Of a DNA stretch of 64,000 nucleotides, positions 18,973 to 62,205 are shown piece by piece. This DNA is from Eledone cirrhosa (Eukaryota): contig OZ024756.1 in NCBI GenBank assembly GCA_964016885.1, positions 4,960,001 to 5,024,000 of the forward strand, given 5' to 3'. A program made the position numbers and the translations under genes. The notes below the pieces were generated by a model. That model was not told where the DNA came from. It was given only the letters and a program-made list of their open reading frames with translations, and did no database searches. The first letter of the stretch is position 1, and every line of letters starts with the position of its first letter.

Positions 18973-19166
18973 AAATATTTAACCCCGACGGCAGAGCTCA
19001 AGCCGTTTCGACGGCTATTTCTGGACTCAGAGTCCAGAAATAGCCGTCGAGACGGCTTGAGCTCTGTCGTCGAGGTTAAACATTTTCCTATTACTGACTC
19101 TACTACCCTAACTATTGAGTACTCTGGTGCGTTATGGTCCACCTGGTTCCTTACCACACCTACTTT
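18973..19166. mobile_element. HHR family 2 hairpin element (3' half of a hammerhead) in (TA)n
   Basis: About 55-bp inverted arms are centred near 19030. The minus arm reads GAAA-CGGC-TTGAGCTCT-GCCG-TC. The tail is homologous to 34420-34500 and 53200-53285. Confidence 0.75.
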
Positions 19167-19227
19167 ATATATATATATATAATCGAATATAAAAGAAAGA
19201 TAAACACAGATATAAACATATGTATTC

Positions 19228-19352
19228 AAATCGTAAGCTTTGCCTTTCATTTTTACGAGGCCGGAGTCTATAAAATAAAGTACCAGTCATGCACTGGGGG
19301 CGATTTAATTGACTTTCCTCACCCCCGAAATTGTTGGCCTTGGGGCTAAATC
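19228..19352 (+). mobile_element. Partial SINE copy
   Basis: TTTGCCTTTCAT..TATAAAATAAAGTACCAG..CACTGGGG..TTGGCCTTG matches the SINE core. Confidence 0.65.
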
Positions 19353-19551
19353 AGAGGGACAGTTTTACTATCAATAATGGCATCTTTACAATCCGTAATG
19401 GCAGCAGCCTAGACATATATATATATTTATATATATATATATATAGATGTATGTATGTATATATATATATATATATATATATATATATATATATATATAT
19501 ATATATATACACAATATTAATAAATGGAAACTATATTTATAAAACCATATT

Positions 19552-19616
19552 TATTTCATTATATATATTTCAAGGATACCAAGTTAAATCATGGTATGCC
19601 TTCATCAGACAAATTA
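19552..19616 (-). ncRNA. Type I minimal hammerhead ribozyme (family 1)
   Basis: Reverse-complement copy of 19698-19762 with intact CTGATGA and GAAA. Confidence 0.75.
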
Positions 19617-19697
19617 CAATATATAACAGTTTTACAAATAGATATTGACGTACCCTTTCAAAAAGATGACCGTTGCTTTTGGAGGCCATCCAAATTG

Positions 19698-19762
19698 TAT
19701 TTTGTCTGATGAAGGCATACCATGATTTAACTTGGTATCCTTGAAATATATATAATGAAATA
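19698..19762 (+). ncRNA. Type I minimal hammerhead ribozyme (family 1)
   Basis: TATTTTGT-CTGATGA-AGG(C)ATACCA..TGGTATCCTT-GAAA-T-ATAT-A-TA|ATGAAATA. Stem I has 8 bp including 2 GU, stem II is long, and stem III is palindromic. Confidence 0.8.
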
Positions 19763-58200: not shown

Positions 58201-59077
58201 TATATATATGTTGTATATATATATATATATATTGTAGACATGTATATATATATATATATGTTGTATATATATATATATATATATTGTAGACATGTATATA
58301 TATATATTATATATATATATATGTTGTATATATATATATATATATTGTAGACATGTATATATATATATTATATATATATATATGTTGTATATATATATAT
58401 ATATATTGTAGACATGTATATATATATATTATATATATATATATGTTGTATATATATATATATATATTGTAGACATGTATATATATATATTATATATATA
58501 TATATGTTGTATATATATATATATATTGTAGACATGTATATATATATATTATATATATATATATGTTGTATATATATATATATATTGTAGACATGTATAT
58601 ATATATATTTTATATATATATTATATATATATATATATGTTGTATATATATATATTGTAGACATGTATATATATATATTTTATATATATATATTATATAT
58701 ATATATATATGTTGTATATATATATATTGTAGACATGTATATATATATATTTTATATATATATAATATATATATATATATATGTTGTATATATATATATT
58801 ATATATATATATATATGTTGTATATATATATATTGTAGACATGTATATATATATATATTTTTTATATATATATATATTTTATATATATATATATATTTTA
58901 TGTAAATATATATATTTTGTATATATATTTTATATATATATATATTTTATATATTTTATATATATATATATTTTATATATATATATATATATATATATAT
59001 ATTTTATATATATATATATATTTTATATATATATATATATTTTATATATATATATATATATATATATTTTATATATA
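55300..59077. repeat. Large compound (TA)n field with ATC-, TTGTAGACATG- and TTTT-punctuated units
   Basis: Direct inspection. Interrupted by unique sequence at 56420-56810 and the HHR arm at 58004. Confidence 0.92.
58004..58069 (+). ncRNA. Type I minimal hammerhead ribozyme (family 1), in a solo arm extending to 58110 in (TA)n
   Basis: TTTGT-CTGAAGA-AGGCATAACATATT GTT AATATGATATCCCT-GAAA-TATATA-TA|ATGAAA. Stem II differs in sequence from 19713 but is still a hairpin. Confidence 0.8.
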
Positions 59078-59740
59078 CAGTATTTTCCGTTGTGTTGTAA
59101 TATAAATATTACACACAGTAGATTATCAGCTCACGTAGAGTTTGCTCGACGGTTCCAGTTGTAGTTCCAAAAGTAATCCGGAGAAAAATAGAAAGATTTG
59201 AATGGATACAGTTTAGTTGAAAGGAATTTATTGACACGTGTTTCTATAACAGTTACATAACCTAAAACAGCTATCTACAAACTTTTAGTTATGCAGACAT
59301 TCAATATTTCAATGTTATTATTTACTGTCATTTCATCAGAATAATATTACTGAGGACCTATTTAGTTTTTATAGAGAATATTAGGAGGGAGGGGTGAAGT
59401 TGTTAGAAGAATAGTTGAAGGAGTGGTTTTTCGATAGCAGTGAGAATTCTTGGTGGCAGTGAGTAATTAGATTCCCATCTGTTGTTTTGACATTTTTTAT
59501 AGAATATATTATTGGTTATTTTTCTAAATCTATAGAAGGATTAGAGATAGTGAAGATATGCGTGGTTGGTTTTGTGTTTGCACTTAATTAACATTCAGGC
59601 TTAAATTTTTCTTTCAAGTGTACGTATCCTTTCACCCACGCATTCACACACAAATATATTTGCACACCTCTACAAAATACATATACACACAATTCACATA
59701 TTCATACTTACATATATATACACATGCATACACATATATA

Positions 59741-61096
59741 TACGATTCGGCGGAAATAACTGATATTGTGGGGTTATTTATCGCCTTTAGACTCCAGGAA
59801 AAATTCAGCAATCTCCACGGCGGAATATACCGCGACGATGTTCTCCTCCTAGCTAAAAACCTTAATAACCAAAAACTAGAAAAACTACGCAAAGATATAA
59901 GAAAACTACTACTCGAAATAGGACTAACTATAACATATGAATACAACCTTAAAGTAGTTAACTTCCTGGATGTCACACTCAATTTAAACTCTGGTTTGAT
60001 TAAACCGTTTCATAAATTGAATGAAAATCTCAAATACGTAAATGTTGGGTCTAACCACCCCATCTCTATAATTAAATCTATCCCTAAAAATATTTCCCTT
60101 AGAATCTCGGGTCTATCTTCTAACATACAAGTATTTAAGGAACACGCCGAGTACTACGATAACGCCCTTAGTAAAGCAGGCTACCTCAACAAAATAGAGT
60201 ACATAGATGGGAACAATCAAAACACCCAAAATAAATCCCACATAGGTAGATATAATAACACAACACCAAACCACACTTACTACCATAGTATGCACACCAG
60301 TAAACCAACAAACAAAACTAATAGAAAGCGATGCAAAGAGTACTTATGGTATAACCCCGAATACAATAGCTCCATTAGTACAAATTTACCAGTACTCTTC
60401 TTTAAAATAATTAAAAGACATTTTCCCACATCACACAAATACCACAAAATCCTAAACCCTACCACTATAAGACTGTCATACTCTACAGCGTTAAACCTTG
60501 AACAACACATAAAAAAGATCAATACTAGAAGGTTAAACGAAAACACTAAGAACTTAAGTACAAAGAACACAAAAAAAACAGTAGACAATACACTACAGAA
60601 CATAAATAAACCACACCTAAGTTCGTCCGCAATACTACTCCAGAGAAAACCCAACGTACACAACTGTAACTGCACCTATCCTGACAACTGCCCCCTCGGC
60701 AATAACTGCCTGGAAAAAAATATTATTTATAAGTGTACCATTAAATCCGGAGGCAACGAGTGGTATTACGTGGGATCAACGGCAACATCGTTTAAATCTC
60801 GATTGTATAGGCATTCTTACTCAATAAAACACCAGAGCCAAAGAAATGTAACAACTCTAGCAGAAAAAGCTTGGACGCTCAGGGATAGCGATCAAAAGTT
60901 TACCCTAAAATGGGAAAAATTAGCTAAAACCCAAAGCTTTTCCAGGAGCCAAAATTTCTGCAAATTGTGTAATCTTGAGATTTATTACATAATCACACAC
61001 AAGAAGAAACTGCTGAATAACAGAATTGAACGAACATTATTCTGCCGTCACAGAACTAAAACCCTTTTTTCCCACTACAAGCCGAATATTACATAA
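59741..61096 (+). CDS. Penelope-like RT C-terminal half, thumb, Cys linker and GIY-YIG endonuclease (5'-truncated, no internal stops)
   Basis: YDSAEITDIVGL, catalytic GIYRDD (59828-59839 for YRDD), VNFLDVTLNL, SNHP, WYNPEY, CNCTYPDNCPLGNNC, IIYKC..YYVGST..FKSR...H, CKLCNLE, LNNRIE..CRH. The first 41 codons of the track ORF are non-coding inverted arm. Confidence 0.9.
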   Translation, partial: YDSAEITDIVGLFIAFRLQEKFSNLHGGIYRDDVLLLAKNLNNQKLEKLRKDIRKLLLEIGLTITYEYNLKVVNFLDVTLNLNSGLIKPFHKLNENLKYVNVGSNHPISIIKSIPKNISLRISGLSSNIQVFKEHAEYYDNALSKAGYLNKIEYIDGNNQNTQNKSHIGRYNNTTPNHTYYHSMHTSKPTNKTNRKRCKEYLWYNPEYNSSISTNLPVLFFKIIKRHFPTSHKYHKILNPTTIRLSYSTALNLEQHIKKINTRRLNENTKNLSTKNTKKTVDNTLQNINKPHLSSSAILLQRKPNVHNCNCTYPDNCPLGNNCLEKNIIYKCTIKSGGNEWYYVGSTATSFKSRLYRHSYSIKHQSQRNVTTLAEKAWTLRDSDQKFTLKWEKLAKTQSFSRSQNFCKLCNLEIYYIITHKKKLLNNRIERTLFCRHRTKTLFSHYKPNIT

Positions 61097-62046
61097 AAGA
61101 GGGACATCCCCCAACTATATAAACCTTAATCTAGTTAGAAAAATATAAAAACAATCTCTTCTCAACATATATTAATAACCTTAAATTACCATACTAATAA
61201 TGAAAAGATATGCTGATGAGAATAGGTACAAATATGCGATAATGAATGTGTCTAAAAACGTCCATAAGTATGTATATATATGTGAAAATGTATATAAATA
61301 AGTAAATATATATATATGTTTGATGTGTATAGTTAGATGTAAGTGTATTCATGTATTAAAGTGCTTATATATATATATATATATGTATATGTGTGTATAT
61401 GTATGTTTGTGTATGTATGCATATGTATATATATATATATATATATATATATATATGTATATGTATATATGTATGTATATATGTGTATGTATATATGTGT
61501 ATATGGATGTGTATGTATGTGTATGTGTGTACACATGGACTAGAGGATGTATGTATATATGTGTGTGTCTATACGTGTGTATATAAAGATAAGTTGAGTA
61601 TGAAAATGTATACACATGAGCGCGTATGTATGTACATGAATACATGTGTGTATATATATGTGTATGCATGTGTATATATATGTAAGTATGAATATGTGAA
61701 TTGTGTGTATATGTATTTTGTAGAGGTGTGCAAATATATTTGTGTGTGAATGCGTGGGTGAAAGGATACGTACACTTGAAAGAAAAATTTAAGCCTGAAT
61801 GTTAATTAAGTGCAAACACAAAACCAACCACGCATATCTTCACTATCTCTAATCCTTCTATAGATTTAGAAAAATAACCAATAATATATTCTATAAAAAA
61901 TGTCAAAACAACAGATGGCAATCTAATTACTCACTGCCACCAAGAATTCTCACTGCTATCGAAAAACCACTCCTTCAACTATTCTTCTAACAACTTCACC
62001 CCTCCCTCCTAATATTCTCTATAAAAACTAAATAGGTCCTCAGTAA

Positions 62047-62095
62047 TATTATTCTGATGAAATGACAGTAAATAATAACATTGAAATATTGAATG
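62047..62095 (+). ncRNA. Hammerhead-like motif in the PLE 3' arm (twin at about 59298-59346, minus)
   Basis: TATT-CTGATGA-AATG..CATT-GAAA-TATTG-AATG. Core and stem II are present with palindrome AATATT, but the cleavage site and stem I register are ambiguous. Confidence 0.5.
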
Positions 62096-62205
62096 TCTGC
62101 ATAACTAAAAGTTTGTAGATAGCTGTTTTAGGTTATGTAACTGTTATAGAAACACGTGTCAATAAATTCCTTTCAACTAAACTGTATCCATTCAAATCTT
62201 TCTAT

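Follow-up and report, generated by a model that had tools for sequence, protein, structure and literature searches.

The 64,000-nt stretch of the Eledone cirrhosa genome analyzed here (contig OZ024756.1; "the window," from a genome of 3.0 Gb) carries inserts that, as read from their open reading frames (ORFs) and motifs, are hammerhead-bearing Penelope-like elements (PLEs) of the Hydra clade. Paired inserts consist of two inverted arms, one of which ends at a short 3' stop (S), while the other continues through a tail to a second 3' stop (L), and the pairing of one S with one L is nearly obligate. S and L are fixed ends, each 6 to 11 nt before a shared motif. In the reading that we favor, to which we assign a probability of roughly 55%, both nicked strands of a (TA)n target would prime reverse transcription on one RNA, one strand per motif.

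Insertion architecture

The insertion architecture is real and genome-wide. Exact-pattern searches of the genome returned 2,816 arms for family F7, 14,587 for F3, and 54,367 for F2, and the reversed-pattern controls returned 0. Seven families (F1 to F7) and an eighth (F8) were distinguished in the window (Table 1). Every pair listed in an earlier note on this DNA was checked, and all are inverted arms joined 5' to 5' with one arm longer at its 3' end; the polarity, set by the hammerhead cores and the ORF, gives outward-facing 3' ends in both arms. The extra tail, given there as 60 to 140 nt, measures 66 to 139 nt.

Some parts of that description need adjustment. The common internal stop proposed for F1 is indeed fixed, but the copy at 18697, which belongs to a diverged subfamily, stops ~5 nt beyond the sequence said to mark it, again 7 nt before the hairpin motif. 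As to the statement that both 3' ends lie in microsatellite, some ends adjoin (CA)n, (TG)n, or a neighboring insert rather than (TA)n. The interpretation of 18697-18950 as a non-overlapping outcome is borne out by its tail-only long-end arm (18857-18948), which begins at the S site. The shape itself had been presented as new, but inverted PLE arms with a one-sided tail are already described in the sections consulted of PMC8557442 and PMC3846280.

Two fixed 3' ends and their pairing

Endpoint mapping agreed with the proposal of two discrete 3' ends, one per arm, and placed the ends far from random. Among 60 arms of F7 (the 59-kb family), 31 end at S and 25 at L (within 2 nt), 4 read through, and 0 end elsewhere. 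The 38 F1 arms comprise 21 that end at or near S, 13 that end at L, 3 interrupted by another element, and 1 read-through. F3 has two short sites ~10 nt apart. Separately, the F1 tails of four loci (L042, L045, L050, and L018) carry a recurrent nested insertion of another abundant element at the same TAAT site.

Pair classes were counted on samples, for which loci were drawn mostly via sequence common to both arms, and 176 of the 179 classifiable head-to-head pairs were S/L. In a set of 125 pairs from six families, three F7 pairs of which came from a tail-anchored search, there were 112 S/L, 2 L/L, and 1 S/S pairs, 2 pairs of L plus read-through, and 8 unclassified pairs. For F2, 64 of 69 pairs were S/L and the other 5 had an unclassifiable arm. 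The L/L pair L246 looks like a nested insert, and the S/S pair L145 may have a deleted tail. Within the first 186 Mb of contig C1, all 42 F7 head-to-head end pairs lying within 10 kb were S/L (P of about 1e-13 if ends are independent); this set overlaps the 125 pairs. Tail-anchored searches yielded 29 F1 loci, in which the inverted partner ended at S 19 times and at L once and was missing 9 times, and 30 F6 loci, with 18 S partners, no L partners, 3 partial ones, and 9 loci lacking a partner. The ORF-bearing arm may carry either end, and tail-only arms are a minority.

A stem-loop motif at the start sites

Directly after each start lies a motif made up of NCTC, an inner stem-loop, a bulge of 1 to 2 nt, and GAG(C/T). 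A descriptor derived from these families finds it 6 to 11 nt after 11 of 14 start sites in the eight families, whereas 0.2 to 0.7% of positions pass in three monomers. Because this descriptor was fitted post hoc, the motif was tested on further families and on outside sequences. Its occurrence after the L site of F6 was predicted beforehand, and it was found there in L403 and L406 with a spacer of 8 nt; after the L site of F4, the predicted copy was present in a looser form (L398; A bulge; shuffle p 0.01).

The outside set comprised 39 distinct 5' untranslated regions (UTRs) of related Hydra-type ORFs on metagenome contigs, taken from 77 loci and kept if at least 100 nt lay upstream of a near-complete N terminus. 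The motif is present in 32 of them (3.4 expected), at a density of 7.2 per kb compared with 0.9 on the antisense strand and 0.43 in ORFs, and TA lies 6 to 9 nt before 31 of 34 copies found there with a tighter script. A list of repeat copy ends on the outside contigs held 31 rows, of which 11 at contig ends and 5 in microsatellites or short internal repeats were set aside. Of the remainder, 11 ends fall 0 to 5 nt before a motif, after a TA match, while one overshoots by 4 nt, two misfit, and one is a read-through. Inspection by eye of published sea cucumber and coral consensuses revealed four copies, two of them in tandem before the ATG of Hydra-1_Ajap and the others in Hydra-2_Ajap and Hydra-2_Amil. 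A variant was seen in Hydra-1_Crog, and no clear motif was seen in Hydra-1_Amil or in the inspected part of Hydra-1_Obim.

At the sequence level, the motif shows compensatory pairing. Of 75 distinct GCTC...GAGCAC stretches, selected irrespective of inner pairing, every one forms the first inner pair (C-G in 49, T-A in 25, and G-C in 1) and 56 form the second, and the bulge is TT, TC, or TA in 74 (other bulge lengths give 0 to 3); the stretches are related, and these counts are not independent events.

The L end is likely an internal start rather than an RNA 3' end, because its motif lies 3' of L. In the tandem parents of F1, F2, F3, F4, F6, and F7, the sequence continues past L into a 5' UTR; those of F1, F3, and F7 have the order pseudo-long terminal repeat (pLTR), ORF, pLTR, and in them the ATG lies 47 to 54 nt beyond L. 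These parents, and the presence at L of its own 2- to 5-nt TA match and downstream motif, give no support to the view that one arm is primed at the RNA 3' end. The TA microhomology pointed out in the earlier note was found, with matches of 1 to 5 nt at the start sites (5 and 5 nt in F1; 3 and 5 in F7; 5, 1, and 2 in F3; and 3 and 3 in F2). However, 4 to 17 equally good TA matches near the start sites are unused, and microhomology alone thus does not choose the sites.

Source of the two arms

Nesting was examined in 20 F7 pairs, excluding L221 and L227, whose alignments were broken or open-ended. The S arm extends further 5' than the L arm in 5 of the 20, both arms exceed 1 kb in 7, and the sum of the arms exceeds the monomer in 5. 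Non-nested arms also occur in the F1 and F7 copies of the window. The frequent lack of nesting disfavors a fold-back origin. The F7 junctions are mostly overlaps of 1 to 17 nt or short fills.

The two arms of an insertion are closely matched, with 18 differences over 12,942 shared positions compared with 9.5 per kb between insertions (arms overlapped in 20 of the 25 insertions compared, and the between-insertion figure includes subfamily differences). In 9 insertions, the two arms share variants that occur in no other sampled arm, 19 in all; the nearest arm is the partner in 21 of 26 tests; and a diagnostic site in F2 is concordant in 50 of 50 pairs, where 55% would be expected. Because the arms share source-private variants, the earlier choice between two RNAs and template re-use can be narrowed to re-use of one RNA or two RNAs from the same locus. 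Palindromes that are nearly perfect, with 1- to 3-kb arms and no spacer, were also seen to persist in the genome (L213-L219, L230, L231, and L245).

Of 187 F2 arms, 167 reach at most 19 nt 5' of the anchor, as would fit an RNA whose 5' end lies there. In most short F2 hairpins, the 5' stops of the two arms nearly coincide, at a TCAGT/TTAGT sequence (loci L282-L387; window 19027-19031) that we take to be initiator-like, and F3 arms stop 0 to 11 nt before the hammerhead core. These stops are possible transcription starts. A G added at the 5' stop of some F2 arms (14 of the 50 short arms and 0 of the 16 long arms) might reflect a capped RNA end, but junction overlap is a confounder, and the observation was not counted as evidence.

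Proposed mechanism and alternatives

Under the favored reading, each motif would bind one protein subunit, which would nick one target strand and set the 3' end of that strand on UA(U) just 5' of the motif. The enzyme from the tailed site would trail the other along the RNA and displace its complementary DNA (cDNA), which would produce overlapping arms; a trailing enzyme that stopped early would leave a tail-only arm such as 18857-18948. Short microhomology would mediate the head-to-head joining of the two cDNA ends. Because the motif of the tailed site lies beyond the 3' end of the element, priming would require an RNA that continues past the pLTR into the 5' UTR, from a 5' pLTR, a tandem, or a circle. 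Tandem or circular RNA, or template jumps, are suggested by arms that exceed one monomer in length (L222). Priming from both target strands, as the earlier note proposed, is kept as the best reading.

A broader proposal is more tentative, and we hold it at somewhat less than even odds: Hydra PLEs may integrate by programmed twin priming, in which an RNA hairpin that is duplicated and conserved across animal phyla loads two reverse transcriptase (RT)-endonuclease subunits on one RNA, each of which copies that template onto one strand, beginning at its own start. The normal product would then comprise the inverted arm and the tail. If true, this would be a two-enzyme, template-re-using cycle distinct from the priming of long interspersed nuclear element (LINE) type with host second-strand synthesis.

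Several observations weigh against one RNA primed at two motifs. The L/L pairs L013 and L076 are real exceptions, and tail-only arms start all along the tail with no pile-up at S. The descriptor misses three start sites: the L sites of F1 and F3, where a degenerate motif 9 nt away retains nothing but a 4-bp outer stem, and the first F3 short site, whose motif is 17 nt distant. The F4 copy fails the strict bulge rule. Searches for read-through copies of F5 found none, which leaves its L site outside the motif prediction. With a tighter script, only 7 of the 39 outside UTRs hold two compact copies (61 to 75 nt apart), with one copy in 21 and none in 11, and the tail regions do not fold significantly better than shuffles (z of -1.9 to +0.1). 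As to a single template, L383 combines arms of different haplotypes, L219 is discordant at two polymorphic sites, and shared variants could stem from later homogenization of the palindrome. Finally, PAc, a Poseidon element of Anolis carolinensis and a member of another clade, showed in vitro no start-site preference by strand and no homology where synthesis begins (PMC11167929, in the part consulted).

Among the alternatives, dual priming on two RNAs from the same or a sibling source survives best, although we consider it unlikely. An asymmetric complex would set S and L, and the motifs would still set the starts. Overlaps of >2 kb would then need no displacement synthesis, L383 and two single-letter cases look like the mixed haplotypes that two templates could give, the discordant sites of L219 fit as well, and dual priming has been proposed for L1 (PMC2837659). 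However, with both motifs on each RNA, the near-absence of S/S and L/L pairs is not simply explained, and both RNAs would have to come from one locus in at least 9 of 20 F7 insertions.

Less likely again is an action of the motif on DNA or cDNA, whereby a longer tandem or fold-back intermediate is cut by the endonuclease just before each motif. Endonuclease resolution is suggested as the origin of the tail in PMC8557442, the D. virilis tail is required for endonuclease recognition of plasmid DNA according to PMC11167929, and head-to-head palindromes are read as self-priming in PMC3846280. However, a simple fold-back needs a nested S arm, which is contradicted by the 5 F7 pairs and by the F1 and F7 copies of the window described above, and the ends of PAc match its in vitro RT start sites (PMC11167929).

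The model of the earlier note, in which one strand primes at the RNA 3' end (here taken to be via (UA)n from the flank of a source copy) and the other at a fixed internal site, appears improbable. It accounts for one S plus one L; a tailed copy would give rise to a transcript with a (UA)n end able to pair with the target; and short copies, which are diverse (46 haplotypes among 64 F2 pairs), could serve as sources. However, it leaves unexplained the second motif 3' of L, which is found at the same spacing in F2, F6, F7, and F8 and also, loosely, in F4 and, in degenerate form, in F1 and F3, as well as the two motifs in outside UTRs. Miniature inverted-repeat transposable elements (MITEs), or hairpins made by assembly or read artifacts, are very improbable even though many copies are short near-palindromes, since the ends are not inverted repeats of each other, the junctions vary from copy to copy, substitutions distinguish the arms, RT-endonuclease ORFs are flanked by these same ends, and an artifact would not yield fixed S and L ends. 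The earlier note's view that these are not MITEs is thus supported. A DNA transposon with terminal inverted repeats at both ends and a fixed internal structure was likewise rejected, the tail being on one end only and the junctions variable.

Identity of the elements

Hydra-clade ORFs were linked to six of the seven families (F1, F2, F3, F4, F6, and F7), and no ORF was found for F5. The monomer of the tandem parent is 4143 nt in F1 (L031), 3569 nt in F7 (L222), and 5966 nt in F3 (L248), the last with an intact ORF, and arms of F2, F4, and F6 are preceded by ORFs of this type. Pseudo-LTRs formed by partial tandems, direct or inverted and with an optional tail, were seen in L031, L222, L248, and L317. 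The ORFs bear the marks of the Hydra clade as given in section 11 of PMC8557442, namely a CxCx5C linker, a C-terminal GIY-YIG endonuclease, CxxC, and CxH, with no CCHH. As in endonuclease-bearing (EN+) PLEs, a single ORF combines RT and the GIY-YIG endonuclease: YRDD and Y[IV]GxT are present in the parents of F1, F2, F3, F4, and F7, and only the C-terminal part is present for F6. DKT occurs in F1, F2, F3, F4, and F7, and RWR stands where the Hydra RWK is expected in F1, F2, F3, and F4, as it also does in the published Hydra-1_Crog. Insertion into (TA)n is likewise a trait of the clade. The placement in the clade is from motifs, and the likeness to Hydra-1_Obim was judged by eye. The Pfam match to GIY-YIG was weak (E of 0.019, below the cut-off), and Pfam returned no match for the truncated ORF of the window. 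For the F3 protein, 1,404 relatives at E <= 1e-30 were found among 8,000 scored, none of them named among the 120 listed.

A hammerhead motif was found in the pLTR of every family (partly by eye, with cleavage predicted), and that of F2 has a U3-A8 core. A descriptor found the hammerheads of F6, F7, and F8, with 7 matches compared with 0 to 3 in shuffles; those of F1 to F5 were read by eye. Rfam gave no hammerhead match, with only microsatellite-driven microRNA noise among the top 150 of 342 matches, and 0 families reached the gathering score in 10 loci. The hammerhead cleavage site was rejected as the origin of the ends, as S lies 10 to 48 nt and L 89 to 155 nt 3' of it.

Features of the window

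The families and their arms are listed in Table 1. F8, which was missing from the list of the earlier note, has a hammerhead-bearing unit of ~500 nt in which the sequence 100 nt past L rejoins the start of the pLTR without an ORF. Judged from this arrangement, F8 is a non-autonomous tandem that retains both motifs; a genome search for it returned 1,796 candidates.

TABLE 1 Arms and associated features of the eight families in the window
Family	Feature	Positions	Strand	Hammerhead core	Motif
F1	Short-end arm, diverged subfamily	18697..18860	-		
F1	Tail-only long-end arm from S site, non-overlapping outcome	18857..18948	+		18863-18883
F2	Short-end arm	18973..19027	-		
F2	Tailed arm	19031..19166	+		19097-19120
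F1	Short-end arm, ~85 nt further 5' than partner, not nested	19510..19705	-	19608	
F1	Tailed arm, 90-nt tail	19694..19892	+	19706	19810-19829
F4	Tailed arm, 66-nt tail	19919..20135	-		19960-19979
F4	Short-end arm	20136..20448	+	20382	
F5	Tailed arm, 80-nt tail; junction approximate	20506..20720	-		20558-20582
F5	Short-end arm	20721..20885	+	20751	
F8	Inverted, circularly permuted pair	21100..22014	.	21270(-), 21704(+)	21531-21555(-), 21433-21472(-), 21935-21959(+)
F1	Tailed arm, diverged; partner not seen	22077..22330	-	22263	22138-22158
F6	Tailed arm, 139-nt tail	22415..22745	-	22736	22458-22546
F6	Short-end arm	22746..22940	+	22751	
F3	Tailed arm	28666..28798	-	28793	28709-28727
F3	Short-end arm, second short site	28799..28863	+	28805	
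F1	Short-end arm	33872..33945	-		
F1	Tailed arm	33948..34090	+		
F3	Tailed arm	34131..34255	-		34168-34186
F3	Short-end arm	34271..34312	+		
F2	Short-end arm	34319..34376	-		
F2	Tailed arm	34380..34502	+		34433-34456
F2	Lone tailed arm, partner not seen in view	53200..53342	-		53249-53272
F1	Lone short-end arm, partner not seen in view	58010..58110	+	58012	
F7	Inverted tailed arm, 113-nt tail	59078..59743	-	59339	59144-59184
F7	Short-end arm; 5'-truncated Hydra-type RT-GIY-YIG ORF at 59747-61096	59744..62205	+	62054	

A further clean copy of the motif (23175-23200, +) lies ~75 nt before a (TA)n run and is probably the tail of another family. Another hammerhead (52862-53030, -; core at 53021) ends in (TA)n, and a small perfect palindrome (52182-52249) is centered on a (TA)n run. 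Positions 1-17970 are occupied by an 18-kb satellite array with a 49-nt unit and higher-order periods of 98 and 147 nt. ORF fragments with a CCHC-type motif at 44086-44996 (-) are presumably the C terminus of ORF2 of a non-LTR retrotransposon. Elsewhere in the genome, a piece of ORF in L247 resembles what we take to be a PIF1-type helicase of Helitrons.

Comparison with known systems

Inverted 5'-truncated arms, a one-sided tail, (TA)n targets, and two RT starts have all been published for PLEs (PMC8557442, PMC3846280, and PMC11167929, in the sections consulted). The literature searched, which did not extend to older subscription papers and some supplementary figures, contained no count of end pairing and no start motif. 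The near-obligate S/L pairing, the one-source and often non-nested arms, and the shared motif are thus apparently new in that they were not found in print. The origin of the tandem and inverted structures of PLEs and of the tail is treated as an open question in PMC8557442, and later steps are left unvalidated in PMC11167929. A motif whose position predicts both ends, together with the rule of one S and one L, makes the origin of the tail and the inversion testable by mutagenesis and RNA mixing, and it gives annotators a boundary rule for PLEs. Such inserts number in the tens of thousands in this genome, form perfect or near-perfect palindromes of up to several kilobases, and would be misfiled as MITEs or fold-back elements.

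The elements share with the Hydra clade of PMC8557442 the C-terminal GIY-YIG domain, DKT, the CxCx5C linker, CxxC and CxH, the hammerhead, the (TA)n target, partial tandems, an inverted 5'-truncated copy, and a tail at one end. They differ in having RWR rather than RWK, tails of 66 to 139 nt rather than 30 to 40, and monomers of 3.6 to 6.0 kb, a size due to microsatellite-rich 3' UTRs. The sections examined of that paper give no pairing count or start motif. The head-to-head inverted pLTRs, with a tail on one, of Penelope elements in Adineta vaga (PMC3846280) are similar in form, but that paper attributes them to self-priming on an antisense template, a route made less likely by the non-nested arms found here. 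PLE hammerheads likewise occur as opposite-strand pairs 100 to 700 bp apart, with a U3-A8 core variant like that of F2 (PMC4209133).

The nearest biochemical parallel is PAc, for which both target strands are cut and extended in vitro from two internal RT starts; the starts bound the tail, as here, and RNA 3' of the starts is required (PMC11167929). A dimer is predicted there for PAc only. The PAc starts lie inside the ORF at an AC-rich stem-loop, with no target homology and no strand bias, whereas those described here lie in the 5' UTR, have TA matches of 1 to 5 nt, are paired one to one, and have a motif for each. In the twin and dual priming of L1 (PMC2837659), the second strand also primes internally on the RNA and an inversion results. 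A target-site duplication of the L1 kind would be masked by the (TA)n target. L1-type twin priming with a variable site and non-overlapping pieces does not describe these inserts: in L1 it is a side path, whereas the sites described here are both fixed, overlap of the arms is usual, and the inverted pair is a main outcome.

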